DNA of 61,267 nucleotides, counting the filler, from Platydemus manokwari (taxonomy: Eukaryota): NCBI GenBank assembly GCA_037951405.1. It is 6 parts of 6 records of this genome, joined end to end, with 100 filler letters (N's around TTAATTAATTAA, not from the genome) between each part and the next. Parts side by side here need not be neighbours in the genome. Positions count along the whole stretch, not along the records: positions 1 to 9,364 come from JBBMOY011259430.1; 5 more parts are not named here. One strand, given 5' to 3'. The notes below the pieces were generated by a model. It did no database searches. It was not told the origin of the DNA and was given only the letters and a program-made list of their open reading frames with translations. This document shows, in pieces, positions 1 to 50,934 of this stretch (the first letter of the stretch is position 1; every line of letters begins with the position of its first letter). The translations under genes and the position numbers were made by a program.

Positions 1-214
1 ATGTAGAATGACTAAACAACAGAGCACAAAGAAAGCTTTAAAATGATATATTATATGAATAATTTTCATAAGATCTTTAATTTAATATTTAAAAATGAAA
101 AGCCAATTTAAAAAAGGCCATTATTTTTGCACCAACCTAATATTCCATCCGCTGTGGGCGGTGGTTGGCAAAATTCATGTGGATATATATGTGTTTTTCC
201 TTTAACTGGTTAGT

Positions 215-2090
215 ATAATGACTGTGGTTGCGTTAACTGTGGTGGCATTCTAGGGTCATATCATCCTGCTTTTAGCAATTCTATATCCTTTTGATGTTTT
301 ACTGATATTAGATACTTTGCTATTGGTGGACAAATGAAGCACATTACTTGCCAAGAATAACCGACTACATCCTTCAAGGTTTTCATCAAAATTGTTGATG
401 AAAAGATCATTTTTATCAAAGCTATAATGTAATTTATTCCCATAGAGAATGAAAAAAAAAAGCTTCCATACAGACTATAAAACATTTCTTTAAAGTGATC
501 CGCCGATAACAAAGCTTCATAATTGAATGATCCATCTATACTTCCTTGCAATACTTTTTCACCATTTTCATTATAACTTTCTCTCGTTGTTTTGGAAATA
601 ACATGTGTTTTCTTGCTTTTTCTATATCTTCCGCTACATATATCCCATTATTGTCCATATCATTTACTGGTTTAAATGCTAAATTTCCTGTTGGTCCATT
701 TGCTTTTAATGTTTTTACATCAGTACGCGGTTTCTTATAATCCGTTCCTATCCATCTCCCATCGTCAGATCGAAATACAGGATCCATTGCATTTGAACAA
801 GAATCTATTGGTGGTGCTTTATAATTGTGTCCTAATATGATTCTCGTAACTGGTTGTAAGAATGTCTTTTGATTATTGTAAATTATCAGCATTTCGTTGG
901 TACAATGCTTATGTTTTCTTACTACAAGATTCGTCACTTTTTTACATTTAGACGTATAGATGACTTCTACTACTCGAGCGAAGGTTCCTTTTTTCTCAAA
1001 TATTATTGGTGCGACAAGTTCTGGGTTTTTTATAGCTAAAGCTAACTTGGTCTTGAAGACTTCCCTATTTAGCTTACAATCATTCAAGATTAACTCCATA
1101 TAAACTTTCCAATTAATCCTTTGGCTAGGTGATAGAAATAGTCTAACTTATTGTTAAAGTACTGTGCCAGTTTCGCATCTAACTTATTTAGTTCTCCCTT
1201 AGTATCTTTTATCTCATTCTCACTTAGATATATTCCTTTATAATTTGTGACTATGACCATTTGAGCACATCTCTTATCATGTCTTTTATGTATGAATCTC
1301 ATTGCACTTTTCCCTTCTTCACTCATGTACAGTGTTGATATTTCTTTCATTCTGATTTCAGATGTTTCTCTTGCTATCAGATAAATAACTTTCCGCAAAT
1401 TTTGTCTCCTTAAATATTTTACCATTTACTGCATGTAATCATTCCTTTTTTAGTCATGTTAATGGACTTATACATGATTAGTGATATTCCATATTCACAA
1501 TTTGTCCATGTTGTCATCTTTTTAGTTTGTGCATCAAATGTTGCTTGGAATTCTCTTAACTCTATGATGTAATGTTTTAGTGCAACTACATTTTCTAATG
1601 TCTTATTCCACACTTGACATTCAGATTCCTTACAATATCCTCCTGTTCTTCTCCAATCTGCAGGTCCTATTTTTTGTCTTGTAATGGCTTTTCCTAATGT
1701 TATTGCATATCCTTATGATGTGTAATATGCCTCTAACTCAAATGTTTGTCTGCATTTTTCCTCTGTTGGTATTTCTGGCATTGTTGCATATACTGGTTTT
1801 AATATTGTTGTGTATGCTCTTGATGATCATGAGCAATGAAATGTCAGCTCTTGATACATTATTTTACACTCTCTGGCTTTTCAAACAGAAATTCGGACTC
1901 ATGATACACATACATTTCCTTAGCTATAGATTTTGTTAAATTTACAGGATATGCCTCTGGCATTTATCTGTATCTAATGAGTGTTTTTGCCCCCATTGTG
2001 GTTTTCCGCAATCATAACCACCTATCCCTGCATCTACTCCTATTAATCCTACTAGATACATTGTTAATAATGTTTGAACTATGGTGTAAA
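215..2090 (-). pseudogene. env: Envelope glycoprotein, chuvirus-G-like (class III fusion protein), frameshifted
   Basis: Signal-peptide-like VQTLLTMYLVGLIGVDA then GYDCGKPQWGQKHSLDTDKC (YDC at 2008-2016). Further motifs: GGYCKESECQVWNKTLENVV; CKLNREV..LALAIKNP..GTFARVVEVIYTSKC..CTNEM..YNNQKTFLQPVTRII..C..PVF..DGRW; GIY..EDIEKARKHMLFP. C-terminal hydrophobic segment. Confidence 0.75.
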
Positions 2091-2157
2091 TTTAGATTTT
2101 TGTTTAGATTGCTGACTTTCTGATTGCTTTTCTTCCTCTTGAACTATAAATTTTCTT

Positions 2158-3566
2158 CTATCTGCTAATTGTTCTAACATTGTTTACTAATTTAGTCCAT
2201 CCAACATTTTGATTTATTTCATTCTCATATTCATTTGCTATTAATTGCGCTCCCTCATCTTTGATCATTATTTGATTGTCTATTAAATTTAAAATTATTT
2301 GTAATGTTGTTATCCTTTTTCCAGGTGTTTTTTCTTTATTCATTATTTTCATAACTTTCTTAACTGTTTCCTTATCTGATATTTTATTGCTTATTCGATT
2401 TATTTCGTCTTTGTATTTATCTGTGCAATGCTCTAATGCTTTTATATGCAATTTCTCATTTTGATCTAAAGCGCTGGCTTCGCCACTAAGTGCTTGTAAA
2501 TATTGTTTGATTTGTTCCTTAACTTCTTCTTTCTGATTAAATTCTCTTATTACCTGTGCATGCATCTCATTTTTATCTAATGCCCAGATTTCGTCACTAA
2601 GTGTTTTATATTTAATTCTCCATTTCGCTTTTTCTTCTATGTCAGAATCTTTAGGTGGTATGTCTTCTTCATTTAAATTTATGGGATCATCGTAATTTGT
2701 GATATTATTCTAGATTTTATTCTTAACGTCTGGTGGCCTTTCTCTAGTTTTTCTCATTGTTGTTTCTTGATCTCTTATTATCTTTCATTTCTTCTTCTGT
2801 TTCAGTCCCTTTTTCTATCTTATCTTCTTCCCTTTTTCATAATTCATTTTTTTCATTCCATTTCCCTAATTTATTTTCTTCTACATTATTTCCTTGAACT
2901 TTTTGTTTTATTATTTCTCCATTGTCATCGTAATTATATGTTATTAATTGATTTATTGGCTCATTTATGGCTTGAAATGCTCTTGATGTTGATGGTATAT
3001 ATTCTTCTCTTATCATATTTCCATAATTATCAAATGGGAATTGTGGTATATAACCATAATTATTTTGTTGTTGATATTCAGGTGGATAAACTGGTTGTTG
3101 CTGTATACGATCCTCTTCATATATTATCTCTTCTTCTATTTTATCTTCTTCCTCATTATTCATTTCTGGTGTTGTTAAGTTTATTTCCTCTCGATATGGG
3201 TAAATTATTTTCTTGATCTCAAAACTATCTCGTTCACTTTTATTGTGACTTTGCAAAACATGGATCATTGTATTGTCCTTGTAAACATTCCATACAATTT
3301 CCTGACTCATCTTGTTTTTTTCTTATCTGCTTATTCACCTTATATGTTTCTGGTGATTCTATCAATTTCATAAAATCTTTTCCTGATGACTCAGTATCTT
3401 CTGCATTCTTAGCGTCCTTCTTCTTTTTCTTCTTCTTTGATGCTTCTCTTTTCTCATCAATGCTTTTGTCATCTCCACTTGCTACTTCATTTATTATTTC
3501 ATCCAGGTCTACTGACCATTGCCTATTAACTTTTCTTTCTTTACTCTTCTTTCTACATTTTTCCAT
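2158..3566 (-). pseudogene. Charged, low-complexity and coiled-coil linker between the Ubl array and env
   Basis: ORFs 3240-3566, 2837-3310 and 2158-2565 are K/E/Q-rich and have no convincing PR/RT/RH/IN motifs. Homologous sequence precedes the second glycoprotein copy. Confidence 0.55.
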
Positions 3567-3599
3567 TTCTATTTTTTTCCCTTATTGTTGATTTTATCA

Positions 3600-5420
3600 C
3601 TTTCCTTTTCTTTTTCCTCACACTTTATCATGTTTATGTCATTATATCCCCAACATACATTGAAGCTTATATACTTCCAGGGTATCGTCTTAGGTACATT
3701 TGGTATTGGTGTTATTATGTTAACTTTCACCACATTTATCTCATCTTCTGAGAATACATTTTTTAGTTCTTCTTCCTCTATTAAGGTTCGTTGTTTATAC
3801 TTCATAATTATTTTATTTAATCCCCATTCTCTCCTATTTATGTATTGTTCTTCTATTTTCCTCTTTAAATGTTTTACTTCCTTCTTTTTCTTTATTAACT
3901 TATAATCCTCTAAATCTTCCTGATAAATATTCAACACTTCTATTTTCACTATGTATTCATCTTCTTCACTTATTAACCCTATCTCTATACTATTCAAACC
4001 TGTTGGCTTTAAACTATGATGCAAAAACTGATAATCATCATCCAATTTTCTTTAGATTTCTTCTTTCTTTCCTTTATGTTCATATTTTAATTCCATTCTA
4101 CTTGGTATGCTTTTCAATCTCACTATGTATTTTTCCTGTGGTATTCCTGTTTGTTTAGATGTCCAATTTTTAAACCACTTAATTAATGCATTTCCACTTA
4201 TTCTGAATTCTTCTATTTCTTTCTTTTCCCTTATATTCACTTTTAATTGATATACAGGTGCTGACAATAACCATATTGGTAATTTAATACTATCCTTATC
4301 ACTAGTAATTCTTTCATCCCATGTTCTCATAACTGTTATTATCCTATTTTCTTATTTGCACTTATTCGATAATATACCATAGATTGTTCGTTATTCATAA
4401 ATATTCCTTTTGTTATTTGTTCTAACGTTATTCCTAATAAAGGTTCTCCTTCTCTCTTTAACTTTCCTACATCCACCTTATATGTCATTTTTCTTATTCC
4501 TTCTCTTTTGAACGGTCAAATTCGATCTATTTCAAATTTTAGATAATCTACCGTTACTGTATCTTTTATTCTTATGATCTTTATTGCTTCATTGCCTGTA
4601 TTATCTATCATTTTAACTTCAATTTCTATTTTGTTCTCTTGTTTAATTTCTTCTGCACAAGTTTTCATATTTATTTCATATTGATCCCATGGTATTGATT
4701 TTGTTGTGTAGTCATGTTTTCCTGTATTGAATTTTATTTCTATTAAGTTTATCTCGTCGTCCTTGAATATGTCTTTTAATTTAACCTTATCCACCATTTG
4801 TTCTTGATTATGATATATGTTTATTTTTACATTCTCCCACTCTGTTTGGTCAAATTAAAGTTCTCGTATTGCTTCTCGTACTTCATTCATTGTTCGATGT
4901 TTAAACATTAACTCATTTTCCCTAATTATATTAGTGTAATAGTTAGGTTCTATTATCATCTTAACTATGTAATATGCATATGGTGCTCCTTTTTCTCCGT
5001 CTTCTTTTATTGATGTGATCACTATTTCATTCTTATAATATTCGTTTAATGGATAATACCAAAATTGAAGTTCTTCATCTAATATTTCCCATTTTCTTAA
5101 CTCTATTTCTCTTTCTAATGTGCAATTTCTTTCCCCCTGTCTATATCTTTCTTTCCTCCATCTTATTATATATTTATCCGGTGGCTTTTCTTGTTGTTTG
5201 CTAACCCATTCTCGAAACTATTGTATTGATGTGATCGCTATATCATTCTTATAATATTGATTTTAAACTTTATTTTCTTTTCACTATCGTGTATCTCTTT
5301 TCCAATTGTTATTTCTAATTCGTAAGCTGGATTTCCTTGCAATTTAACCGGTTCTCTTCTCCATTCACTAACATATTTTCCACTGCTTATTCTTCTTGTT
5401 GCAAAAGTCCATGGCCTCAT
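3600..5420 (-). pseudogene. Tandemly duplicated unit with about five ubiquitin/SUMO-like domains, directly downstream of the capsid
   Basis: The two units align: IQ*FREWVSKQQEKPPDKYIIR / IKWFKNWTSKQTGIPQEKYIVR; LDEELQFWYYPL / LDDDYQFLHHSL; LKDIFKDDEIN..KSIPW / LKNVFSEDEIN..KTIPW. Ubl-like patterns include VKHLKRKIEEQ...KIIMKYKQRTLIEEEELKNVF and TVDYLKFEI. Confidence 0.6.
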
Positions 5421-6400
5421 CATGGCTATAACATTATTCTCTTTATTTTTATCGTCTTTAATTTGAAACTGTGTTAACAGTTTGTTTAATTGTTCCCATG
5501 TTACATTCATGTCAGGGTTTTTTTCATGATCTTTAGTCGCTATGTTATTTTTACTAGTAGTCGGTATCTCTTTTTTATTTTTCTTAAATGTTACTGCACT
5601 TATTAATGGATAATTTCCAGGTATCCCATAATTTATATTATGATTTGTTAAACTATTTGACATGTAAATAATTTCAACTCTTCTAGCTTTTTGAACTAAT
5701 TTCTCAAAATTTTTATATTCTGCTAATGCTATTGGACTTATTAATATGAGTATTATTTCCCTTCTAAATTGATCTATAACCATTTGCTCGCGACCCTCTA
5801 CAGATACATATTTGCCATAAGCCTTAATTACTAATTCTTTTATTGCCATTGAATATTCTCCTACACTTTCACCAGACATTTGGTATCTATCATTAAATTG
5901 CTTTACATAAAATTCATGCACATCATCTCCCACAACTAATTTGCTTTTTAATTCCCTAACTAAATCCTTATAACATTTAATTTCTTTAAAATCTAATCCT
6001 TGTAATGCTTGTAACGCCTATGATTTTAAATACAATGACAATCTTTGAAATTGTTCTGCCTGCGTCAAGCTATATGCTTCAGTTAATCTATTATATTCAT
6101 TGAAGAAATCATCAAACCCTTCCTGTTTTCCATCATATGGGTTAATTGGTATATACACATTTTTGCTATTCATAATTACATCATTCATTTTGTCTAATAG
6201 TGCTTTATATTTTACAATTAATTCACTATCTATTTGGGTGCATATTTCAATTATTTATCCATCAATTTGGGTGCTTATTTCTCTACAATCGATTATTTCA
6301 CTATCAAATTGGGGGCTTATCTCTCTACAATTCACTATTTCACTATCTATATCAATTTGGGTGCTTAGATTTTCTAAATTATTTCCTAATATTATTGTTC
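5238..6400 (-). pseudogene. gag: Gag capsid (retrotransposon gag, Ty3/gypsy-like) with an in-frame stop at 6018-6020
   Basis: Manual translation: PINPYDGKQEGFDDFFNEYNRLTEAYSLTQAEQFQRLSLYLKS*ALQAL...FNDRYQMSGESVGEYSMAIKELV (MHR-like QxxxESVxEY). The N-terminal part has ISTQID-type repeats. No CCHC knuckle seen. Confidence 0.85.
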
Positions 6401-6775
6401 AATTTGAACTACTTTTTTCGGTAAATTACTACTGCTAAATTATGTTGATTCACACTGCTTATCAAACTTCAATTAATATCAAACTACCTAAGTCTATTAA
6501 CGCTTTTCTCAGATATTTAATCAACACTTTTCGTGGAGTAAACTTGAAACTTTTCCTGGAACAATCGATGATATTACGAAACAGACTTATTAAGTTATCT
6601 ATCTTCTTACTAATTAATGTCACTTAGAGCAGGGTGTAGACCTCTCAAATTGTTAAATTTGTTGCGATAAAGTTGAAAACCTTAATCTATTTTTCTTCTT
6701 TTTATATACCGAAGTTACAAATTATGCGTCGCTAAACTAGCTCTCCGGTTCACGCAATAAAAACGCGCTTTAATT

Positions 6776-6915
6776 ATCAAATTTATCAAATGCTCCTTGG
6801 CTCAAATTGACTTTATCTCTAGCTCCTTGGCTCAATTTAACTTTATCAACTTTATCTATAGCTCCTTGGTTTGATTCGAATTTATCAAATTTATCAAATG
6901 CTCCTTGGCTTAATT
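6776..6915 (-). repeat. Short tandem repeats in the retroelement leader (LSQGA-x-DK in ORF 6770-6982)
   Basis: GCTCCTTGG occurs four times with TTATCAAA/CTTTATC spacers. Confidence 0.75.
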
Positions 6916-7014
6916 CAATTTCGTTTATTTTATCTATTCTAATTCTAGTAATTTCTAACTTCACTAATTTACCTATTTGCAACTTTAACTTCTCAATTTT
7001 GAATTCACAATTTC

Positions 7015-7267
7015 AAACTTTTCACTAATCGAGCACCAATTATCTTATTCAAATTTAATGGTTAATTTTAAAACTTTAAACTTAATTTTTACTTCCAAAT
7101 TTATCCTCACCCGTATCACCAATTGTTGTTTAACTTTTAACGATTTTTTACACAAATTTCTCCTCACTCGAACACCAGTTGTTGTTACTTAATTTCTAAT
7201 TTTACACCTTCAACTTTTAATAATTTTTAAACTAAAATTTCTCCTCACTCGGTTACCAATTGATGTT
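7015..7267 (-). repeat. Array of four PBS-like motifs with AT-rich spacers
   Basis: Minus strand: TGGTAACCGAGTGAGGAG (from 7258), TGGTGTTCGAGTGAGGAG (7177), TGGTGATACGGGTGAGGAT (7121), TGGTGCTCGATTAGTGAA (7038). The first three are preceded by AACA(A/T)CA and followed by AAATTT. Confidence 0.7.
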
Positions 7268-8553
7268 TATTATTTATACTTGCAAACTTCTAATGATTTT
7301 TCAAACAAATTGTTATGTTTGGGGCTTGCTAATTTTATTTCTTATCTTATCAGTCTCGTAATTCAATTTATCCTTATTATTGTTGATGATCACTGTTGTC
7401 TTAATCAGTCACACGTGGTTCTGATTAAGCCCTAGGTACGAACTATTGAAACTATTTATTTCTTTCTTCGCCTCGCGTTTATATGATGATAATATCAAAC
7501 GGCAAAAATGATCAATTATTACTACCAAAATTATTCCTATGTCAAGACTATGAATTTTAACAAAACTATCAGTCTCTATTTTAATTCTATCAGTCTCAAA
7601 AACTTTGATATCAATATTATCAATTCTTACTCAAATCAATAACAAACTCGTTGACTACAAAATGTTTATTGACATCAAATTTACACTAAACAATTATATA
7701 AATTACTACGTTTACAATGGTTAAATATACAATTCAAAAATACGAACAACCTTATCAAGCTTCTGGGGAAGATTTACGATTAATAGACTGCATTCTATTG
7801 CAGCAAAACCACCTTTCAAGATATTTGAGACAAAGCTCTATAGTAAAATAATATACACGGCGTATATAGTATTGATCAGTGGTTTACAGAATTAATCTGA
7901 CTTACGTTAACGAGCATATACTTGAACAATGGCTGTGGCAAATATGGATAGGATCGAATACGAGCTTCTACTGGCGACTTCACGTAACAGGAGGTTTTGT
8001 GTAGTTTGTAACGGATTATTCTATGTTACAGGCAGTTCGAATGTTATGACGTTTCCCCCCCTATTTATATGAATCGGGAGACGAATTTCGTCGTCATGGA
8101 TTATTGGTGAAAATGGGTTCAATTAAATTTATTCCCATGAGATTTCCCTTTTATTTTATTAAAATAAACTTGCTCGTTAACTTTGAGATAATGAAATATA
8201 AATAATTTAATATTCTTCTACGTTTAATTCTTAACATTTTCTTGGAAAGGTGCTATAATATTTATCAACCGTAAATAAATTATCATTATCATTTTATGAT
8301 AATAATAATTATTATTATTCTTATTTTTTACCAATTCAATAATCAACCAGAAGCTTGATTTACAAAATAAAATTTAATTAATTATAAAAAAGGTAAAAAT
8401 AAAATACATTGCTTGATTAACCAAGCCATTTATAAAAATTGGTACAATAATAACCGCTTGAATAATCAAGCCTGAAAATTGCTACACTTATTTATAAAAA
8501 TCGATATCAAATGTTGTCAAGCGAAACTATTTGAATGGCAAAAATTTGTTACA
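7261..8553 (-). repeat. Putative 5' LTR (~1.3 kb)
   Basis: Minus strand starts TGTAAC (8553) and ends AACATCA (7261), followed after 2 nt by TGG of a PBS-like site. Internal TATA box. No second LTR is present to confirm the boundaries. Confidence 0.55.
8055..8070 (-). promoter_or_regulatory. TATA box of the putative LTR
   Basis: Minus strand reads ATATAAATAGGGGGGG and points toward gag. Confidence 0.5.
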
Positions 8554-9364
8554 GTTTTTCATATTTGGATTGATTATAGTTTTCATTTTGCCATTTTCCC
8601 AACAATTCAACTTCTACGATAAGGTTGAAATTTTTTTCAAAATCTTGATTCATATGTTTTTACATTAAAAAATGAAACATTTTCATAGAAATCTTTTACT
8701 TACTGTTTGTTGTCTGTATGCTTTGCTTTTGAAATCAAACAAAACCGTTTATTTTTCTGCTCTTCTGTGTTTTTGTAAATGATTTGGAAACATTTGCTTA
8801 TTTTTCAGCTTGATGTATTTTCCTTTGTCGATAAACAAATCTTAAATAAAACTTTCATTATTTTTTAAAGTTATCTTATTTGTTTAGTTCTGTAATTTTT
8901 ACATAATTCTAAAGGATAGCACAAAATAACACATTATCAAATTACCTCTAGTTAGATATGATGGTTGTTTTAAAAAATAAACTAAAAGAAAAGATTTTAA
9001 AATATTTATCAAAGCTTGTCGATAACTTGAATAATTTTTATTTTCCATTTGAAGCCACGGAGGACATATATAGAATAAATAATCAAAATATAAAATTTGA
9101 TCTCGATATAATTGTAATTATTCAGTTGATATAGGAGTGAAAAATGCGTATTTTGTAGGTTGATTTTGACAGTATTAAGAGCTATGACTTAATATTTTGG
9201 GATCATCAGCATAAGCAATAATATGGATTTTCGTATTGGAAACCTAATAGGTTGATGCCTACTAATTACACTTAAACGAGAATTATATATTAGGTGTATT
9301 AGTATGATTCCGGCTTTTTTTTAAAAACAAAAACATTTTTTAAAATATTTATTTAATGAAATTC

Positions 9365-9464
9365 NNNNNNNNNNNNNNNNNNNNNNNNNNNNNNNNNNNN
9401 NNNNNNNNTTAATTAATTAANNNNNNNNNNNNNNNNNNNNNNNNNNNNNNNNNNNNNNNNNNNN
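9365..9464. other. Artificial contig spacer
   Basis: N44-TTAATTAATTAA-N44, which has stops in all frames. Confidence 0.95.
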
Positions 9465-9879
9465 AAATATTAAATAGACTATAGATTAAAAAGCTCCTGA
9501 AATTTGATTATTTGAAAAAATGAAAAAAGTATGTCGAATTACAATTTATTTAAAATTAGTGAAGATCCCTTTTTAACATTAGAAGCGAATTATTTTATAA
9601 AAATAAGTAATTATGCTATTAAATATATCTGTAATTAACTAACTCCATTTATAATTAAAAAGTTTAAATTTAAAAAGTCAAATAATAAAGTGGTTAGAAA
9701 GGGAGCTTGGTTTAAAAATATGTTTTATCCATATTAGACATCTTAAAAATGAGATATTAACTGAATTATACGAATAAATAAAACATAGCAGTTATATATA
9801 AAATTAAGTTATAAAATTATCTCATGTGCGAAAATTCTTTGTACGAAAGTAGGTTAAAGGACCCTTTTTCTTAACTTAA
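9465..9879 (+). mobile_element. MITE family A copy (left end cut by the gap)
   Basis: Core CTCCTGAAATTTGATTATTTGAAAA and right end GGACCCTTTTTCTTAACTTAA are shared with three other copies. Confidence 0.7.
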
Positions 9880-11727
9880 ACCGAAATTTATTTTTATAAA
9901 ATATTCAAAATCAAAACATTTTTAATTTAATTATCTTTTTTTAATTCTTTGAATTTGTTTTTCGTATTTTTTATTTTCCTCACAGTCATAACATGGAAAC
10001 TGATACAAAACAATAATAAAATTTAATTTATGAATTAGATTAAGGAAATGAAAATCACTACAATGATAAATCAAAATTAAAAAATCTAATTGGTAATGCT
10101 GTTTTTTCAGTGATTTTCAAAATACTTTTAAGTCGAAGTGTTTTACCATCTCAACAGCAAAGGTTTCAATAATTTCCACAATTTCCATGTATTTAAATTA
10201 TTTTCTGAATAAATTTGTTATCCATAATTTCAATTCGGAGAAGAATTTTTTTTTTGGTAATTGGCAATTTTGTTGTAGGATGGATTGTATGAATTTTTCG
10301 ATAATCTTTTGTCCAATATTTTCTACACCAAACTATTAATAACCATGTTTTTATAGACATTTTATAAATACTTTAATTTCCATCCATCGATATTTTCAGC
10401 TAAATCAATCTTGATAAGGATTTCGGCATCGAAATAGCAATTGTTAGTAAATAAATTATTTGTGCATAATATGTCTAGAATAATATTGAATGTGTTTGTT
10501 TTTCCTCGTTTGTTCTTGATCTATTTCTGGTCTATTTTGAAAAAAAAGTCCTTCTTATCATCTGCATTTAATATGGATGCAAATTGCTTTCCTTCTCTCT
10601 CTGTAAGATTGAAATCAAACTTTCATTACAAAAACCAAGTGGCAATAATTCTCATTCAATTGTTTCGGGTTAAATCATAACAAGAAATTATCAACAAATA
10701 TCATCAAGAGAAAATCGAACCATAATTAGGCAATTTCATACAAAAAATTGATAAAATCTTATTTTCTTGTTATAATTCAGCTTCTTGATTTTTTCTTTCC
10801 ATTTATTTTTTACTAATTGCCTGGATATGAAAGATTTAAAATAAATGAAACAATCAAATTTAAAACCAGTGATGATAGGAGGGAAATTTTCTTTTTTCAC
10901 GATTGCTATAAAATCTGGATTCCTGTTTCATGGCTAATTATTCATTCATCAGTTTTTATAGTTAAATTAAGAAGTTCATTCGAAATTAAAACGAAATAAG
11001 ATCATTTCAGGTGGTAGACGATATTATTATTCTATTGGTTTTATTAAAATAAATTGCGATTTTGGGGGAAAGTAATTCAAACCAGATTTGCCAAAAATAT
11101 TATTAATATTATAATTATTTTCTTCTGAACACATGCGTTTGAATAATATCTAAAACTGATGAGTAATAGAGAAATTTTTATTTTCCATTAATTTAGTGGA
11201 TTCTGAACATTTTTCATGTTCTTAAGTGGAGTGCATTTTAGATTTAGTTAGTCAGTGATAAGATTGAAAAGTAAATAATTTAGTACCCCAGTTTTGAGAT
11301 TGTAGTATCAAAAATAATTACCGGAAAGTTAAATTAAACTAAACTTCACATATGACAATTTTCCTTATATGCCAAAATATTTTATTAAAACTTTTTAAAA
11401 TTTCTTTTGTAAATTAATTAAAAAATTACATTTAAAATAAAATATATGAAATTTAAATTTTATTATAATAATCGTCTAGACTGTTCAACGAAAATTTCAA
11501 ATAATATATAGAAAGGTAGTGGCTAACATTTCGATTCTGATTAATTATACTTTGATAAAAGGATAAAATTACATAATAGTAAAAAAGAAATTTAAAAATT
11601 TAAAATAATAAAATTTTATCATTAGAATCACATCATAACTTAAGTATAGCTTGTTATCTTAATATACCGGTTATAGGCATTTTGACAAATAAAACTTATT
11701 AATGTTTAATTTAAATAAAAAATCGGC

Positions 11728-12063
11728 TTAAGTTAAAAAAGGGGTTCTTTGACCTACGTTGGTAATAATGATTTTTTGCGCATGAGATAATTTCACTTCT
11801 GAATTTTATTTATAATTGCGATTTTTGATTGATTCGTATAATTGCAATTCGACGTACTTTGATCTGTTTTTCAAATAATCAAATTTCAGGAAATTTTGAG
11901 GCTCTATTGTATGCAATATTTGTTTTCAAATAACTAGAATTCTTCTTTAATATTTAAAAAAATCAAAATGTTTTTAACGAATATAATTAAATAAATCGTA
12001 TAGATTTTTGCAATACTCTCAGCAAATTAAAAATTTTATTTTAGGGCCTTTTTTCTTAACTTT
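11728..12063 (-). mobile_element. MITE family A copy (inverted, internally deleted)
   Basis: TIRs TTAAGTTAAAAAAGGGGTTC ... GGGCCTTTTTTCTTAACTTT, with the reverse-complement core TTTCAAATAATCAAATTTCAGG. Confidence 0.7.
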
Positions 12064-13970
12064 ATCACGAAAATCGAAAATATCGAACATTTTTTTTACA
12101 TTGAAAATTAAAAAGCTATAAGCATTATTTCAAATTTATTCATTATTATTTTCTTCCATATTTGTAAATAAATATTGTATTGATATATATTAATGCCCTT
12201 TTAATAACATAATAAGCTTTAAATTTCAATGTAACGGAACAATTATCAGAGAAATTAATTTTAAAATTCGTAAGTATTATTTTGGCTTGTGTGTATAGAA
12301 ATAAATAAAGGAATTAAAAATGAGCTGAAAAGTACGCATCGAACAACACGAATCAGCTGATTATTAATTTAATTCATATTTTTAATTTAGATTTTACATG
12401 GAAAATGTTATTTCATAACATTTTCATTACCATCAGCTATAAGGATTACATATATGTATTCTATCACTCAAATCAGTCATTATTTTTCGTCCGCAATATA
12501 TGGCATCGTCTATTTTTTGTCATTAGCCATACATTTTTCTGGTATAACTCAGATTGGATAATGACTTTTTATAATTTTATGGTGCTTCACCAACAGGATA
12601 TAAATTCATGTTTTTATTTTTTCTGTTTGATGGTTAACCTATCGAGAGATATAATAATATAATAATATATTTTTAAATAACAAGTAATTTTGATTAAAAA
12701 TTTAAATCATTTTTTAAGGATTTAATAATAATTATTATATTTATAAGAAAAATTAAGAAGAAAAATAAATATAATTAAAAATTGGATTTAAATAATAAAC
12801 TCGTTTCGAAAAACGAGATTTTTGATAGAAATTCGGAAGAAATGCACAAGATTGGATTAATCAAGGATTAGAATAGGAATATATGAGAAAATGTGAAATT
12901 CTCACAAGTATATTATAAACTTCGACAAGACAGATGGAATAACTAGGTAAATGACTTCCATGTATCATGTTCAAAAAATAAATGGTCAACCAATTCAAAT
13001 CGTCAAACCATTTCAAATCGCCAGAGTGTAAATAAACGATGACAATATTTCAAGTTATAATTATTCTTGGAAATTCTTTGTACTATTTTTATTCGGATAT
13101 GTTAGTCACTCTCTTAATATTATGCATATCTTTGAGAGTTTTCAATTTCCATTGTATAAAGCTAATATCAAATAACTAAATTTAACTAACAATTGAGGTG
13201 CAAGAATAACCATGAATGAAAAAGAGCTGAGTGAAAAATATCATCAATAAATAATCGATATAAACATAATTAAATTATTAATTTATATAAAAATTCAATA
13301 AAAAGAAATTAATAAGCTTAAGCACTTTATTTAGGACACAAATTCGATAAAACATAATTCGGTGAACACAGTTAATGAAAGCAGGAATTATAATTGATAA
13401 CTGGTGAACTACTATTAGGATATCATTGTAGCGATATTGTGAATATTTGAATTATACGTCGAAATAGTTATTGAAAATGACATTTCAGTGCAGAAATTTG
13501 AAAAGAAATGTAATAAAAGTAGTAAATGTATTTTTTTTATTATTTATTTGTTTGTTTTAAAACTATTAATGAAACATGTATTTCAGCATTTAAGTAACTA
13601 TTACCTTTTAAAATTAATGCTCTTAAACGGCTATCTTCCATTCAAAGAGTTACATTAAGCAAATGTTTTCAATTTTATGTTGTACGAATTCAACTAATTT
13701 CAAGTAATCATTATGAGACAAATTGATCAAAATTTCTTAAAAAATGGTGCTTGTAATTTGATAAATATTTTTGTTCTGTACATTCAAAGATTGTTGCTAA
13801 AAGCAATTACCTTACACAATCATTTCTTATTATAATAAATTGTCAAAAAACATTATAATTCCATTTGTATTGGCACTGATTGTGAAAGTAATATTTAATT
13901 GATCCAAACTGACATCTAGATATAAAAGAACTCACATAAAAATATTAACACGAAATTAGTGTTGGGTAAA

Positions 13971-14399
13971 TCACAAATCAATGAAAATGGTCACTATAAC
14001 CAAGAAAAAAAATCCTAAAAGTGGTCAATACACACTTACCGCTAACCAATCAGATTCTTTCTACTGTTAATCCATATTTAAAAGCTAAGAATCGATAGAC
14101 AAATGTCTACAAACGGTAGCAAGCTCAAATATCCGCCAATACCACTGGACATACGAAGAAATTTTCAAGTAAATCGATTCGTAAACAAATGCACCAAATA
14201 TAAAAAGAAGTTTCTCGACATCAAGCAGACACATAAAAGAGATTGATTTCCATGAATATCTGCCACTTTCTTTTTTGGTCGATAACTTGAATATTGAGCT
14301 CATCTTTGTGTGATTTTTAGTAATCAGTCTTTTAGATTACTTTCAATTCTGTTTTTGACTTTCGGTCACTGATCTCGTCTTGAGTGATTTACTTTGTGA
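13971..14399 (+). mobile_element. Interspersed repeat family B (MITE-like)
   Basis: Colinear with 18253-18701 (ACCGCTAACCAATCAGATTC, GTTAATCCATATTTA, ACATCAAGCAGAC). Ends TCACAAA..TTTGTGA. Confidence 0.65.
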
Positions 14400-15367
14400 A
14401 TAGTGAAAAGATTTACTGTAAGTATTAAGATTCTCATTGTGATATTTTGGTTAATACAGTTTTCAGATCTAAATTGTTGATTGATAATACAACATTAACA
14501 ATATACACGAGAACACAATTAATATTTTTCTCAAAAACATAGTAGTGATTCGAATGAACTTGCCCAACTAGCTAGTTTATTGGAATCAAACAATAATATT
14601 GAGTGAGATGAAATTCTGCAAAAGAAAAACGTATTTGCACCTTAGAACCCCTATTTAATCTTTAAACATTGGCATCCCTACCCAACCACACATGCATAAC
14701 AGCTAGTCAATAATTACGGAGTTGAATGTTAAACGACAATTGGAAAAAAAGAACATGGCCACACTACAACACATACATAGATATTGACCAATCCTACTCA
14801 TCCTTAAACTAACAAGCCGGATAGGAACATGGAAAAGCAAAGATCGAATCAAAACATGATGAAACATGTCACAAAAATTACACACAGATTTCGAGTATAA
14901 ACATCGATGTAAAGATGGTCAGTGCCCAATTGGAAGTCAGGTTTTGTTATATTCTTCAGTTGAGTGTGATTATGAATTTTATAAGTCGGACTGAGTACGC
15001 AATTGAAAATAAAGTAAAGGCCTTCTAGTTTTTGGAGTAAGCGATTTGTCAATTATTGAGAAGTATCCCAACAATATACAAAAACCATATTTCGAAAACA
15101 AAAATTAATAAATAATAATAAATTGAATTAATAAATTTTTTTATTTATCAATGGATTACTTTCACGTGATAAATATTAGTTTTTAATAAAATATTACATC
15201 GATGAAGTGTACCGATATGTGTGTGTACAAAATGATATTCAAAGAGTGACTAAAGTGTGCAAAATTCAATTTCTACACAATACATTTCATTGAAACTAGT
15301 GTATTTGAGAAGTAGTAAAGTATAGTTAAGAAGATTGTACTTTACCAGTCTAGGACACACGTAATAG

Positions 15368-15472
15368 CAGAGGTGGCCAACTTTTGTGTACTTAAGATCG
15401 ACTTTACATTTGAATAGCGTCTCACACGACCGACTAAAACTGGCTTCAAGATCGACCGGTTGGCCACTCTTG
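15368..15472 (-). mobile_element. hAT MITE (~105 bp)
   Basis: TIRs CAGAGGTGGCCAAC / GTTGGCCACTCTTG. Reverse complement of the copy at 54163-54269. Confidence 0.8.
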
Positions 15473-18252
15473 ATATATAGTATCCAATTTTATTACGGAA
15501 ATTTACTTAAACAATTAAAAGGAATTTCTGAGTTCCGAGATCAGCGCAATTATTAAGTCTAACTCCTCGATTGACAACTATTTGATCATAGAGTTTGTAG
15601 TCTATTAAACATTTTAAAGAGTTACTGTATTTAAGAAATTTGTGTAAACAGAATAGTTTTGTTATCACTCTTAGAGTAAACCTGAAATAGTATTGAGATG
15701 CACAAGCTGAGTTTGAGTAATTTCAAACTTAAAATTTTTTCTGAAAATATTACAAAAAGATATGCCAGTAAAAGGATAATGATTTTTATATATTTAATAC
15801 CAGGGCATAATTTAATATCTCATTAAATAGTGGAATGCTAATCCAAGTAGTAATCAATTTCGTTAATCATGATGAGAAATAGAATGATGTTAATAGCTGA
15901 TATATCTATAATGCTTTATGACGAACAATGTTTTTATTATTTCCCTTAGGATTGTTTTATATATTTATAAATATATTATTAATATCATTGTACCAATTCT
16001 ACTTGTATAATGTACTCGCAATTTGCTGAAACCAAATAAAATTTTGAAACTCAGGGAAATAAAATTATTGCAAAAATTAATTTTTATTTATAAAATAAAA
16101 CGAAAACAAACTTTGGAAATTGAATTTGCTTCGAGTTGGTAAATATTTAAACAAAGATGAATAGAAGTTTCAGTTGCCACTGCAGAAAATTGTGTAGATA
16201 TTGTTATTCATTAAATTTTTCAGAATAATTGATGGATAAATCTCTACTTAATGTCAATATTTGCATGAGGAGATTTTCTCATGTTAGGTCTGATAAAAAA
16301 TTATATAATCAAAAATTTATGACATAATAAATAAGAATTTGTGATGAAAATATTTTCCAAATATCTTTCACTACCAATTTAGCCTTAAAATTATTTATGA
16401 CTCTAGAGAAATTCTTGACATTCACATTGAATATTTTCATTGAACCTCTCAATATCATTTTATATCATGTCATTTATATGATTTTCAAATAATTTGTCCT
16501 ATTATAATTTATCATTTTAATAAGAACCTAATATGAACTATTAAATTTGATAATCTTTATCATTTTATTTCATTTCAAATATATTAATTTGTGTTTATGC
16601 CATATCATAACATTTTACTTCATTTATATAAGAGATACTTCACAAATTACGTTAGATTGTGGGTAATTTATTTCGTTTAATATCCATAAAAACTTATTTT
16701 CTTACTTTTTACTTATATCATTTCAACTGATTTAATTATATTTATTCTGCTGAATTATTTGAAAAATGAAGATAAAAACAGGGTGACAGTTCTAGCAATT
16801 ATAAAATGATGACAAAATTATGTATAGTTCTAGATTAATTTAAAATACGTTAATGTTTGCCCGTGATTTTAAATTTTTTATCAGTTTTAATAATTTTTTT
16901 AGCTTTTAGTTAACATACTTAATATCACAGATGAGACTGATATACAATCATGATAGATATTCAGTCAAATAGTAAATTAATAGACTCTAAATGAATTTTA
17001 TGTCCATGTCCGCTTTTGTCCAACTTATTAAATAACAGATCTTAACCGATACTGCTAACTAGAAAAGACTATGGAACCCATCTGTCAGTAGACTTTATAT
17101 TAAAGTTCATACCGGTTTAATCAACTATATCTTTAATCGCTTACACTTTTATCCATTTAATATTCTAAGAAAATCTAATAATAGATACTGTTTTTATAAA
17201 GATGTTCTTTTTATTTTATTATCAAAAAATAAATATTTGAATTTCTGGGAAATATATTGAAGCTTTCGAAACAGAGAAACGAAATCGCTGCAACTGATAT
17301 TAAACGTGGCTTATACACAATGTCTAGACGGTGAAGAATCTAAATATTCAACCAATTTCAAGATGAACGAAATTAATATGTTCAAATAAATTAATCAAGA
17401 TATATAATTTTGAAATAGAATTGCAAATTCATATCACGAAGAATCTAAAATCAAAAAGGCAAATCATCAGATTTTTATTCACAAATTTATTTACAGCTGA
17501 AGAGAGAAAATAATAAATAATATTAAAAGTATTAAACAAAAGTCTTAAGATATTATTTTCAATAAATCAAGACTTAGATTGAAATATCCTATTAATAGAA
17601 AATGATATTAACCATATTGAATTATGCTAAGAATAATATTTAGTAGTTAAATTGACCCTCAATAATATGTATAATTATACTTTTGAACTTTTTAGGGGGA
17701 TAACAACTAATTATCTGAACACATTACAAATATCGAATTGCCAGTCTTATTTTATTGATAAAACCAAATATTGGATTGTTAAGTTGTGTATTAATAAAAT
17801 TCCAAGCAACTATCTTAACCTGATGATAACATTGTAATGATTGATTCAACAATATAGCAATGGACAATATAATTCACGATTTTGTTTCACAATTTTCATT
17901 TTTATTTCATGTATAACGTATGATTAGTTTTGTATTTTTTCAAAAATCCATGTATGAAATAATTATTAATTTTGTTTTTTTCTATATAAGAATCAAGGAA
18001 TGAGCTAATGATAATTAGATAATTATTAAATTTAAATTAATTAAGAAAAAAGAAAAAAAATATTAATTAATGACAAAACAAAAATCTTTCAAAACTCAAA
18101 CAAATCTATTTATGTAAGTAACACCTACGTGTTGAATAGATAAAATAACATTTTTATAATCGCCAAACCGTTTTGTTTTATATAATTCTTCAAATATTAC
18201 CAAAAATATTTTTAATTAATATGCATAGTTCATAAATTTGTGCTGGGTTATA

Positions 18253-18701
18253 TCAGAAATCAATCAAAAAGGTCACTATAAACACGAAAAAACACTAAAT
18301 AGGGTCAGTTCACACAGAACCGATAAACACACTCACCGCTAACCAATCAGATTCGTTCTAATGTTAATCCATATTTAGAAACTAAGAATCGATAAACACC
18401 TACAAACAGAAACAAGCTCAAGTATCCACCAATGGCACGAAAAATATTATGAAAATCTCAAGTAAATCGATCAATAAACAAATTCAGCGAATTGAAAACG
18501 AAGATCCGTGACATCAAGCAGACTCACTAGATAGGTTATTATAAAAGAGGTTGAGTTCCATGGAGTCCTGCTAGACTTTTTTGGTCGGTAACTTCAGTGC
18601 TTAGCTTTTGTCTGATTTTAAGTAATCAGTCTTTTTGATTACTTTGCATTCTATGTTTGACTTTCGGGCTCTGATCCTATCTTGATTGATTTTCTTTGTG
18701 A
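18253..18701 (+). mobile_element. Interspersed repeat family B copy
   Basis: Direct repeat of 13971-14399 with inverted ends AAATCAATCAA / TTGATTGATTT. Confidence 0.65.
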
Positions 18702-19706
18702 ATTGCGTTGAGATGATTTAATAAAATATCTTTCCTTCAACTCGATTGAAATGGCTGTTTACTAAGAAGTTTAACAGGTGAGTGATTTTGTGACTGACAA
18801 ACTTTATTATTATTATCATTTTACAATTGCCTTAGTCATTATGACACTTAATATTTCAATTATTCTGAATCCATGTGAGGTAAATTTTTATTGACGTTAT
18901 AATTAACTGCATATCAACTGCTATTTTGAAGATTATGGTCTTTTCATATCTAAAAATTAGCTCAAACTTGGTCACACCTAATTTATTTTACAGGGGGCTT
19001 GTCCGATAACTAAGTTGTCATACCTTTTATTGTTCTTTTGAGGTATTTTACGTCCTCAACAGTCATTATTTATCTACTGATTATTTAAAATTTAATCTAA
19101 ATAAATCAAATATATTTTATAGGCTTGTCTCGATTGTCATTGATGGTAATATAATTAGTATTTATATTTTAAAAATTAATTCATTGTATTGTCCCGGGAT
19201 TATTTAGCAGCAACAACCTTTATTCGTTAAAGTCCAGATAAAGAACTTCTGAATCTAAAAAAACAATCTTTGAAAATAAACTTAAGTTATTTGTCATTAA
19301 TACAAGATAATTCTGAAACTCCCAACAATTAATTTTTAAATGATAATTTCTTAAGTGTCAAAAATTAGTGTATAGAACTAGCAATTATGTTTAAAACTTA
19401 TTCCATGTATACCATTTCATTTAAACCAATATTGTTTTATTAAGTCAATTCATTTTTAATTATTTCATTTAAAAAATCATCAACTATGATTCCAAAATAT
19501 TTGTTAAAAAAAATGTATAATTTTTATTTTAAGCAAAACTCACAGCTGTACAAATTATATTTGAAAATGAATTCCAGTCATCATAAATATCTCACTTATG
19601 CAGCTATTGATATTTGTGATATTGCGTAATTTTTACATTTTATTTCTGTAAATACTATTATTCACTTGTAAAATTCAATATCTGAAAAATATTACATATC
19701 TAATAG

Positions 19707-29419: not shown

Positions 29420-30901
29420 AAAAGATTGAAAATAATTAAAATTAACAAAACCACACACATACATAATAGATGAATAATAATAAATTGGTAATGTTTAATG
29501 ATTATGACAATATATAATTATTTGTTAAAGTACTTTTACTTTTCGAATTCTTTAAATTAAATTCATTAAATTTATATTTGATTGATAATTCAATTATAAA
29601 TTTATTATTTTATTGAATCATTAATTATTAATTCATTAAATCATTTCCACATACCTATGTTCTTTGGAAATTATATCAGGATAATGTTAAAGTAAGTTCA
29701 AAATAATACACCAGATTTCTAAAAGTTCATCAATAATGTTGACAAACAAATCGAAGGTCAAGTAGCAAATCTTAATTTGACACATCAATTATGCTTCGAA
29801 TTTGTGTGAGCTTAACTAATTAAGATTTATTTATTATTAGTTTTCTGTTTATTTATAAATTAGTCATAAATATATAATCTGGAAATCAAGCATTTTGTGG
29901 AAACGAAGGCTTTGTGATATTTGCTTAGTGTCAGACTATTGAAGGAGAACAAATTTAGTAAAACTTTACAAACATAACAATGGTTCTATATCTAGAATTA
30001 AATCAATTTTCAAAATATTTTTATCCAAGCAAGTCTTGAGTTATTCATTTTACTTCATTTGTTTACTTAGGAAATACAAATATTACCCATACCATGATTA
30101 TATCATTAATCCTATAAGATAGAAAATGTACTCATTTCTCTTAATTAAAATATGACTTGGTCCAATAATTTAAAAGAATTCGTATGTCAAAAAATATAAT
30201 TTTAATATAATGTGAATTAATCATGATATTATGTAAATTTTCAGCAACGTGCGTTGCAAATAAATAAATTTTCAATTAGATGTAAATAATATTCTTAATA
30301 TTAAATTAAAGTCAAAGTAAATACTGACCACAATAAACACGAATTGACTATTTTTAGTTCATTTTAATTTTCAAATTATATCAAATTTACAATTCGTAAT
30401 AATATTTTATCAAAACAAATGTATAATCAGTTGGATACTATCCACAGATACCATATATTCAAACAAGAAATATTTATTACAAGTTTGATGAAACAGTAAT
30501 GTATTAAATTTTAAAATTAAATTATATTGGAAGTCAAGAATCTATATTCGCATGTGTATTTTAGATTGATTTTCTTATTAATTTAATCTTGAACTTAGAT
30601 TTAAAGTTTAAATATCTGTAAAATTTATTTTGCATATTAAATTAAATTCATTTCATTTTAAAATTAAATTTTATCATTGTCAATATATATTCAGAACTCT
30701 TTTTATACAAAGTGAAATAAAATGATAAATAAATTGAACAAGAATTCGTCTTAATTTTTATAAGAGATTTTAATAACTATTTGAAAACATGATTTATCAC
30801 ATGATATTGTGTTTAAATTAAGTAAAAGCTTTATATTTTTTAGTTAGACATAATTTTTGATATACATTGAAGTGTATCCATATTTGTTGTTATCCCTTGT
30901 C

Positions 30902-32646
30902 ATGATAACATTAAGTGAGAGATTGCAACTAGAACTGAGAAATCGAGATCCTTCTGAAGTATATTTATGGTCGGTTGTAATGCTACTTAACAATTTATTA
31001 CAGATAACAGAACTAATATTAGATAATTCCAAGGCTAATGAAATTGAAGGATTAGACAGTACCTATATCAATCTTCGTGAATTATCATTAGTAAATGTTG
31101 GCCTTACAACGCTCAAAGGATTCCCATCACTTCCTAATCTGGAAAAAGTTGTTCTTAGGTTTTATATTATATTTTAACATGTCTTGCAGTTGGATCTTAG
31201 CGACAATAAAATATCAACTGGATTAGAAAACTTAACAAAATGTAGTAAATTGTCACAGTTATTATTAACAAACAATCGTTTTAAAAATATAAAGGACTTG
31301 GAATGCTTAGCAAGTTTTAGTCATTTAGAGATTTTAGATCTATTTAATTGCACTGTATCACTTGAAGAAAATTATCGAAAAGAAATATTTAGTCTTGTTC
31401 CAACTTTAAAGTATTTAGATGGTTTCGATGAGTATGTTTGTATAGTTAATTAAATAATACTATATTCAATGATTTATAAAAGGAAAAACGAAGAAGAATT
31501 GAATGAAAGTGAGGATTATGAAGATGAAGAAGAAGGTGAACTTGGGACTGAATCAAATATTAAAGATGTTTACGAATTGTCAGATGAAAGTGAATCGGAA
31601 GAGGAGGAAGAATATGAAAATGAAGGTTACCTAATTTTATTAAAATCAAATTGTTTATTTTATTTTTAAGTGATTGTATCAATAGACAGTAGTAATGAAT
31701 CTAATTACAAAAATATAATAACGCTTAAATTGTTAATAGTAAATATTCCAAAAATTGTCTATCACTGATTGGATTTTCGCATGTTTTAATCACATGTGTG
31801 ATTACATTAATATGTCGCCTCAAATGTTTGATATTAAGTTTCGTTGACAATAATAGTATTTAATAGAAATCAATAATAAAAAATACTTCTAATAATCGTT
31901 GTTTGTCCCAAAAAAATATTGATTAAGAGAAGTCGTTAATTTTTTACACGTGTATGGTCTATTTGTTTACATGGAAGATTATGAGATTGAGGGGGGTGGG
32001 TTTGGCAAATATGTTGGTTAAATTCAGTGGGTATTTTGATTTATAAGTACTTAGTTGCCCGCTTTTGTGAATATTTCCAATTCTAATTAACTCTTTGTCT
32101 CAAGTGGTTCAATGGAATAATATTGTGTCATTATTGATTGGTATTTATGTGAATTTCATTTGTATTTCAGAAGTTCTCAACACAAATCGAACCAGTGGTA
32201 AAGCTCCGAACACTGGGGGCAAGGATATGAATCTGTATCCGAATGAAGTTGTCGAAATTTCCGATGAAGAAGAGCTTGACGATAATATCGATGAATACGA
32301 TGAAGACGACGATTACGATGAGAAAGCTCTCGACGATATCATTGAAACCAATGGTAAAAGCAAAGTCAACAATTACGTCACCGAATCCGATGATGATGAT
32401 GATGACGATGACGAGGAAGACGAAGAAGGTGATGATGTCGATGAATCGTCGTTGAATGGTGATACGAATTCATTGATTAATGGTATCGATAAGATCGATG
32501 AAGAGATTTTACCGACATCTTTGAAACGAAAATACGATAATGCTTTTGAGGAATGTTATGATGAGGAATCTTGTGATATCAAATCTTTAAGAAATAATTC
32601 AGATTTCGAATTGACTGATGAGTCGTCATTGCTTGATAAAGTGTAA
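30902..32646 (+). CDS. ANP32: Acidic leucine-rich nuclear phosphoprotein 32 family; exons 30902-30958, 31004-31147, 31190-31431, 31483-31625, 32171-32646
   Basis: RLQLELRNRDPSE|ITELILDN, LRRs (LSLVNVGLTTLKGFPSLPNLEKLDLSDN), LRR cap YRKEIFSLVPTLKYLDGFD, D/E-rich tail and KRK NLS. All GT-AG junctions are phase-compatible. Confidence 0.95.
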
Positions 32647-36949: not shown

Positions 36950-38560
36950 TGAAGACCTTTGTTTCTATCATTCAAGACCAAGGGCATGTCCGCCCTCAAC
37001 ATCAAAGGATAAAGTGGGCCCTTTTTGATCATAACGAACCTACTATCGATGAAACCCGTCTCACATCAGCCAGATATAATGCCAAATATAATAATGCCGA
37101 ACATTTTCGGGGCTCTCGCAACCAACACAAATATATTATCGACCTTGAAATTTGAGCACCGCACATTCTCTGTCAAACTAATCACCGTTATTTCAAAACC
37201 TGCTGAAGATAAATTGTTCAATAGATGACTCCACTGAAGCAATCGGACCTAATGTCAAAATATCAAATCCAGATACTCAATATCTGTGTAATTCAGCCAT
37301 AAAGCTCAAAATTTGTCCAAATCTAACCAACTTCTGACTACTTAGCAACTATCTGGATATCCTATCTTTTTCCTTCAAAGGCTGTCAACAATATGCGAAG
37401 ACAATTGATCACTTCTTATCTCCCAATCAAGCAGATGTCAAGCAGTCCAAATATATCAAAAAATAACTAAAAACAGGCAAACACCGCACACTAAACGAGC
37501 TCCTCTCACTCCTGAGCTGGTGATGGAATCAACGCATGAACAAGGACATCAATGTTTTCCAGCCTCCTCATCCTTTCCCCCAGAAGTCCAAGAACACTTT
37601 CAACAATTCCATTATCTAAATACACCTTCTAAATTTACTTTTCAATGCTACTGTTGATTCATTAGAGCAGTGGTCCCCTCGAAGCTACATTTGTATCAGC
37701 ATAATATTGAAATCCTGCAAATCAATCAGACTCTTCTTCAATCTTCAAACCACATGTACTAGAAGTCTATTTTTTCACGGAAATGTCCAATTTCAAACCA
37801 GGTAAACATTCAAATTTTCACATTGTCTCATCATGAAGGCCAAAGCTCTCAAGGATACATCATAAGGAATCTTTGTAACTATCCTTAAACTTTGGTTTCT
37901 TAACTGAAACTAGGAAGGCAATCTTCTCTCTCCAAATCAAAAAGCAATGCTTACCTTTGACCGATGCGCCGAACACAATAACTATTTATTAACTCTATTA
38001 GAATATATCACTGAATATCACAAAAATATACACCTCTGCTGGATTGACTTGAAAGAAGAATTTAAATTTTACCATATCATGTCATATGGTACGCATTTGT
38101 CAAAATTGAATGTAACTCTCACTAAATATAAATGGTCAAAGTTCTGTACCAGGATCCAAAATCAACCTACTCTTACGGCCAACTTAAGACACCACTAATT
38201 CCTATCTTTTGCGATGTCAAGCAAAAGATGTCGTTAATCGACTTTCTCATCAGATCATCTCTAATACTTCCAGAGCCATTGACCAACAATTGACACGAAT
38301 TCTCAACTCCAGCCTAAGCCGATGGCATAGTCATCTTAGGAAATTCCGGCCAAAACCTCGAACTTAGACTGAATCATTTCATTAAAGATGCGAGAGACAT
38401 TCATCGATGTGCTTAAGTGTGTGTACAATACAAAAGTTAGAATTTTTGATCAAGCAGTGTTGACTGTTGACAACACCAACTTCAACAAAAACTTGGAAGT
38501 AACATTCAGTCTTCCAAAGCGAGCACTACAATCCATCATAACGAATTTTGAAGTAGTGGA
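36950..38560 (+). mobile_element. Degenerate non-LTR retrotransposon (R2/NeSL-like RT fragment)
   Basis: FDRCAEHNNYLL...KNIHLCWIDLKEEF resembles GCxEH...WxDLxxAF of RLE-clade RTs, and a VKQ remnant lies near 38215. C/A-rich composition. Boundaries approximate. Confidence 0.6.
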
Positions 38561-38579
38561 CACATAGTGAGTAAGGTAA

Positions 38580-39310: not shown

Positions 39311-39522
39311 AAACAAGCTAAATCTCATAAAGATATCTTAAGAAATCACTGGAAAATAATAACCAATCGGAAGCCATAGATAAGATACATCTATTATTAA
39401 CATTCGCTATTAGTTGGAACGTCGCGAGTATTTTCCAGTCCGGAGAAAATCAAACAATAAATCAGTCAAGCGTAAAATGAACTCTCCTGGCTACATAAAC
39501 AAAAATAATTTTTAAATCTTAA

Positions 39523-50744: not shown

Positions 50745-50934
50745 GTAAGTTTGTTTTTTATATTTTTTTAATTCATTTTTCATCTTGTTGAATTTTTATA
50801 TTTTTTGTTGTTATTATTTAATCGTGAAATGAAATAAATTTAATTTATTTTTTCCCATTTGTTCTTAAAAATTAAAATATTCATTGTTGAAAGCAGTTGG
50901 ACATCTGATTTTCGTATTACCATCACTCATGGGA

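Follow-up and report, generated by a model that had tools for sequence, protein, structure and literature searches.

A duplicated block of candidate ubiquitin-like units behind the Gag capsid of a flatworm Ty3/gypsy element

Introduction

Between the Gag capsid and the envelope gene of a decayed retrotransposon in the flatworm Platydemus manokwari lies a duplicated coding block, which raises the question of what the element has placed there and what the units of the block might do. The window analysed, a stretch of 61,267 nucleotides from assembly GCA_037951405.1 with a GC content of 22-38%, consists of short contigs chained by N spacers, and the locus lies in the first contig (positions 1-9364), on its minus strand. 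An earlier note made from this DNA alone had read the block as a tandem array of ubiquitin/SUMO-like domains attached to Gag, and the peptides quoted in it were located on the minus strand at the place it had given.

Organization of the element

Read towards lower coordinates, the element comprises a candidate LTR, a set of TGG repeats, the capsid, the block at 5330-3572, Lys-rich and acidic ORFs, a charged ORF and an envelope gene (env). It is a degenerate copy of a Ty3/gypsy retrotransposon that bears an env and is present in many copies, likely one of the flatworm GAG-ENV-POL type. The candidate 5' LTR at 7260-8030 (-) carries TG...CA ends and an AATAAA near its end, and no second LTR appeared when the first contig was compared by blastn with the whole window. 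Four TGG-initiated repeats at 7020-7262 (-), beginning at 7262, 7181, 7125 and 7041, resemble primer-binding sites in tandem; no tRNA match was made for them, and ARAGORN detects no tRNA in the window.

The Ty3/gypsy-type Gag capsid at 5602-6395 (-), interrupted by two stops, matches Pfam PNMA with an E-value of 6.4e-5 and a score of 22.9 bits, which is under the curated cut-off of 25, and it has no match among PDB sequences. A motif scan of the linker behind the capsid revealed neither a CCHC knuckle nor any Cys. Short tandem repeats with a spacing of 30-42 nt occur in the leader (6774-6937) and at the start of gag (6214-6367), where the minus-strand frame stays open.

Downstream of the block, Lys-rich and then acidic, Pro-Tyr-rich ORF pieces at 2840-3581 (-) have no significant Pfam match and include one PPxY at 3074-3085, for which the chance expectation is 0.06 in 1396 residues. 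The charged ORF before env (2161-2709, -) is probably helical. Its Bcl-2-like motifs were noticed by eye only, and searches of Pfam and PDB sequences gave no Bcl-2 similarity. Two short motifs at 2161-2460 (-) follow what we take to be the BH1/BH2 spacing pattern of Bcl-2 proteins and lie just before env, where the giant gypsy element Burro carries a BCL2-like domain.

The env itself, broken into several pieces at 107-2085 (-), is assigned to the class III (gB/chuvirus-type) fusion proteins by matches to Pfam PF24664 at 539-1147 (E 8.4e-29), 1093-1425 (E 0.022) and 107-647 (E 6.3e-7); it ends near 107-260, and the window stops about 100 nt beyond it. The gB-type env follows gag, Pfam searches of the intervening ORFs having found no pol domain, and pol presumably lies beyond the left end of the window. 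A pol-less, non-autonomous element is a superfluous assumption, as pol comes after env in the GAG-ENV-POL type, and identity with Troyka was rejected on account of termini that differ from those in the available part of its description. A second and more decayed gB-type env relic at 38731-39338 (+) shares 65% DNA identity and 42% protein identity with 815-1373; the ORF pieces upstream of this relic (37914-38564) have no Pfam match, and tblastx found no copy of the array there.

Ty3/gypsy elements with a gB-type env follow the order GAG-ENV-POL in flatworms, nematodes and bryozoans (Chary and Hayashi, PMC13524379). In the Platyhelminthes errantiviruses with HSV/gB-type env (such as Smed_errantivirus_1-6, PMC13524379), of which numbers 5 and 6 exceed the others by 2-3 kb, a gB-type env comes after a Ty3/gypsy capsid without an intervening pol; the present element, whose capsid is probably of this type, has the same arrangement and likewise exists in many copies. 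The ORF at 1422-1712 matches the env of Smed_errantivirus_3 in the supplement of that paper by eye at 20 of 49 gapless positions. The distance from capsid start to env distinguishes the present element from Smed_errantivirus_1-6, measuring about 4.3 kb, of which the duplicated block makes up 1.75 kb. The word 'ubiquitin' is absent from the main text of PMC13524379 and its 7 text supplements. The same env class, the chuvirus glycoprotein, has been captured by the Anakin elements of mosquito (PMC7642597), which, unlike the present element, belong to BEL/Pao, a group whose env-bearing members are described with env after pol; the capsid here scores with PNMA, a family of the Ty3/gypsy type.

The duplicated block and its link to Gag

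The block is duplicated in the arrangement A-B-C-A'-B', as the earlier note had described. Its two frame segments share 29% identity over 211 aa (BLASTP, E 7e-14), and none of 2000 shuffles reached the score of either A with A' (z 10.8) or B with B' (z 11.5). The linkers behind B (4624-4716, -) and B' (3572-3703, -) are paralogous as well (z 6.6, 0 of 2000 shuffles). The main part of unit A lies at 4990-5226, B with one stop at 4717-4974, the single-copy unit C with one stop at 4345-4635, A' with one stop at 3965-4258 and the stop-free B' at 3704-3961, all on the minus strand. Comparison across the units A, B, C, A' and B' gave no significant pair among eight, the best being C with B' (97 of 2000 shuffles). 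At the level of sequence, A, B and C are thus without detectable mutual homology, and the idea of one fold repeated in tandem gains no support from this side.

Stops interrupt 3 of 294 codons and 1 of 260 codons in the two coding frames, compared with 28-46 in the other frames, which indicates recently decayed ORFs. Identity between B and B' at codon positions 1, 2 and 3 is 0.46, 0.69 and 0.38, where chance would give 0.31, 0.36 and 0.37; third positions are at chance level while second positions are conserved, a pattern that suggests an old duplication maintained at the protein level. The pattern is not seen between A and A' (0.59, 0.54 and 0.59), and the selection signal is restricted to B/B' because the third positions of A/A' are unsaturated.

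Two frame breaks were counted rather than the single frameshift of the earlier account: the first separates A from the Gag frame at about 5220-5265, and the second, at the end of C, separates it from A' at about 4340-4395. A probable start of unit A is situated in the Gag frame at 5241-5330 (-), recognized by its likeness by eye to the start of A'; for these first ~30 residues the likeness, taken alone, is insignificant (z 1.5, 203 of 2000 shuffles). A 38-nt segment at the first break (5221-5258) is 92% identical to 5005-5042. As the probable start of A shares the frame of Gag and no Met precedes unit B in the array frame, we infer that the block was translated as part of Gag. The proposed attachment to Gag requires reading over a frame break. 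GG is absent from both array segments and from the Gag frame, in agreement with the observation in the earlier note that C-terminal GG motifs are missing, and this absence supports its suggestion that the domains are integral instead of conjugated.

Presence across the element family and relatives

Family-wide presence was assessed in the one public sequencing run that contains the stretch, which may be the source sample and hence not independent; no RNA run containing the stretch was among the runs listed. In total, 7975 contigs of that run were placed on 1-9360, and the summed contig depth, which is no copy number, was 2158-18368 in all bins from 313 to 8424. The five array bins showed 2158-5982 and the gag bins 4739-7368, against 27 in the flank bin 8737-9048, so that in this run the array bins were about 80-220 times as deep as the flank. 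As the block is covered as deeply as gag and env, it belongs to the element family. At the contig ends, bins 1-312 and 9049-9360 reached summed depths of 251,407 and 152,117, far over the element, reflecting other very abundant repeats.

Word-indexed protein searches with A'-B', A-B-C or the capsid returned 0 relatives, and searches with the block returned 0 in viral contigs and 0 in metagenome contigs. The sole phmmer match among 1.84 billion representatives (E 4.4e-4) was a tandem-repeat protein and was dismissed as chance.

The fold of the units

A beta-grasp, ubiquitin-like fold is quite probable for A/A', judging from their sequences, and for B/B' and C it is somewhat favoured. With A' alone, the ubiquilin-2 UBL was third of 6 matches in PDB sequences (E 1.1). 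When the second natural copy, A, joined A' in a profile, the ubiquilin score improved, and ubiquilin UBLs took ranks 1-3 of 7 with E-values of 0.0074-0.021 among 177,635 PDB sequences; another A/A' profile search placed the ubiquilin-2 UBL first (E 0.022). The alignment extends without gaps over 41 columns, beginning with the first strand and including the helix, lies in the first 45 residues of A' and includes 12 identities with A' by eye. The domains concerned, the ubiquilin-1/2 UBLs (PDB 2nbv_B, 2klc_A, 1j8c_A), are likewise integral and without GG. They differ from the candidates in that the second half of A/A' does not align and exceeds theirs by about 20 residues; neither B nor C is matched, and the E-value is only 0.007. 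A further signal came from the ESM Atlas, where a natural ORF spanning the latter half of B and the beginning of C was queried against 7.7 million clusters: 5 of the 6 matches listed were ubiquitin/Rad60-SLD clusters with scores of 0.85-0.87 (recognition 2530), and such scores, under 0.9 with 116-138 shared features, are a lead only on the scale of the tool. Unit B matches Pfam ThiS with an E-value of 0.18 (12.8 bits, cut-off 22.5), and in the first AlphaFold model, which is unusable at a pLDDT of 36.5, it has the order strand-strand-helix-strand-strand-helix-strand.

These sub-threshold ubiquilin, Atlas and ThiS signals speak for the beta-grasp claim of the earlier note, while no Ubl-clan Pfam family reaches its cut-off in the block, ThiS being the sole match. 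The SUMO label given to A' in that note is not supported, as the only sequence match is a ubiquilin-type UBL and no SUMO chain came up when the array was searched against PDB sequences. It is unlikely, yet a serious contender, that the duplication is real and the units are small alpha/beta domains of another fold, with matches arising from a K/E/I-rich composition. This explanation draws on the Pfam result, on the four-unit and B/B' profiles, which returned no Ubl in PDB sequences, and on the comparison with canonical ubiquitin. For a profile of 86 near-canonical ubiquitins, the counts per 1000 shuffles were 14 for the start of A, 773 for the rest of A, 335 for B, 613 for C, 60 for A' and 589 for B', and hhalign comparison gave 7, 16, 14 and 58 of 100 shuffles; the units are, by sequence, without detectable likeness to canonical ubiquitin. 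Unrelated proteins also came near the ubiquilin score in the PDB profile searches (CovR, E 0.014-0.047; YmoA, E 0.059), and a second ESM Atlas query gave no usable match. Two AlphaFold models built without deep alignments (pLDDT 36.5 and 35.0, a low confidence due to the lack of relatives) produced no Ubl match in structural comparison by Foldseek, as the earlier note had suggested, and by VIA, with best Z of 5.6 and 5.0; they lend the other fold some support, though models of this quality are too poor to decide. Against another fold, two methods applied to different units, one searching 177,635 sequences and the other 7.7 million clusters, both ranked Ubl families at the top, for a fold that had been predicted beforehand, and the ubiquilin score rose with the addition of the second natural copy.

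Possible roles of the units

Shuttle factors dock on proteasome receptors through their UBL domains. In the absence of GG the usual conjugation is impossible, and the units would remain in the Gag product. It is conceivable, at somewhat less than an even chance, that ubiquitin-like units without GG, kept in Gag, serve as multivalent baits for host ubiquitin-proteasome receptors. Host Ubl-domain proteins would have been the source of the captured domains, with A being ubiquilin-like, and the domains would have been retained and doubled since their display on assembling capsids was advantageous. The displayed units may tie up or divert the UBL-binding proteasome receptors and shuttle factors that otherwise clear Gag, and budding would be left to the downstream PPxY. 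Three points make this bait role the best guess: the units of type A resemble ubiquilin, the doubling was maintained by selection, and UBQLN2 is reported to restrain the Gag-Pol of PEG10 (PMC10076021). A bolder version is clearly unlikely: nucleocapsid knuckles would have been replaced by an expanding array of five host-derived Ubl domains, at least two of ubiquilin type, and the hundreds to thousands of baits per capsid would neutralise the proteasome-shuttle destruction of Gag.

Other roles were weighed against the bait role. It is improbable that the units work within the particle, where they might space its components, assist folding or offer Gag, Env or RNA a surface for docking. They do occupy the position of the nucleocapsid knuckle, no CCHC knuckle follows the capsid, and they have strongly diverged from host-type ubiquitin; yet net unit charges of -3 to +5 are unlike an RNA-packing module, the basic stretch (+8) being the linker at 5331-5660, and ubiquilin-like sequence has been kept in A. 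A nucleocapsid substitute by charge is likewise unsupported by these values. The integral Ubl domains of coronavirus nsp3 would be a parallel for units acting inside the particle. The earlier note had offered two roles, of which the recruitment of ESCRT machinery is the weaker. In it, the units would mimic ubiquitinated Gag, recruit ubiquitin-binding ESCRT factors and release enveloped particles, a decidedly improbable reading in spite of the env carried by the element and of the finding that Gag-fused ubiquitin can stand in for a late domain, with more ubiquitin per particle being better (PMC2958808). The same fusions depend on L8/I44 and are redundant with PPxY (PMC2958808), and budding is rated second-tier because the units are far from canonical ubiquitin, to which no similarity was detectable, and a PPxY is present at 3074-3085. 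The remaining role, in which SUMO mimics soak up SUMO-interacting silencing factors, is very improbable: Rad60-SLD (PF11976), the family also named for Burro (PMC6431247), is among the Atlas cluster families, but the sole sequence match is to a ubiquilin UBL, SUMO chains were missing from the PDB sequence searches, and a domain borne by Gag would be mostly cytoplasmic.

Comparison with known systems

The closest precedent is found in the giant Burro/GYPSM1 gypsy elements known from Schmidtea and Dugesia, in which HHpred detected a PF11976 motif, of Ubi2/SUMO-like type, in the Gag-Env interval, with meddling in host ubiquitination as the suggested role (Arkhipova and Yushenova, PMC6431247). A Ubl domain at the Gag-Env position was thus already known, and this precedent raises the prior for a Ubl fold in the present block. 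In both elements Gag comes first and env precedes pol, in the present one presumably, and the stretch from Gag to Env holds an integral Ubl-like motif, here a candidate one. Burro, for which one such motif is named in the text, has a 4,873-aa polyprotein with CCHC knuckles and MATH, BIR, ankyrin and BCL2 parts (PMC6431247), whereas in the present element the capsid is followed at once by five candidate units with a duplication among them, knuckles are missing and the gag-env region is of ordinary size. Searches of Pfam and PDB sequences found no MATH, BIR, ankyrin or BCL2-like cargo between Gag and Env. The difference from Burro thus lies in the internally duplicated array of five candidate units next to the capsid, without knuckles, and no report of such an array in a retrotransposon or gag was found in the literature searched, which was mostly non-subscription. 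Engineered Gag-ubiquitin fusions also join a ubiquitin-fold unit to Gag, the fold being a candidate in the present case, and they differ in being artificial, with a single canonical ubiquitin whose effect depends on L8/I44 (PMC2958808).

Other observations

Elsewhere in the window, a voltage-gated channel gene with Ion_trans matches lies at 41825-50771 (+) and is likely a sodium channel, on motifs that we take to be of the sodium type. Channels of this type are not known from nematodes, and a nematode host was rejected on this ground. A Wnt gene is located at 57243-58050 (-), and a gene at 30854-32646 (+) encodes a leucine-rich acidic protein, presumably ANP32-like. The Wnt, ion-channel and leucine-rich-repeat genes are split into short exons. 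A dispersed pair of direct repeats, 14030-14412 and 18327-18714, is spaced about 4.3 kb apart and 73-92% identical in three blocks.

Among GTDB genome contigs (L001-L122), many bacterial and some archaeal records contain a near-canonical ubiquitin domain that continues into other sequence and does not end in GG. Some of these records are on large contigs or chromosomes; others resemble contamination by eukaryotic polyubiquitin.

Implications

Retrotransposon-encoded answers to host restriction at the protein level are barely known. If the reading of the block as an expanding array of host-derived baits were true, the capsid itself would carry a counter-defence, and the engineered Gag-ubiquitin fusions would have an equivalent in nature. 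The units are small and separable and belong to a many-copy family, which makes their fold and partners directly testable. If the fold holds, the block would be a second and amplified Ubl capture in the Gag-Env interval of gypsy elements, probably planarian ones, beside that of Burro, and repeated selection for interference with the ubiquitin-proteasome system would be indicated.
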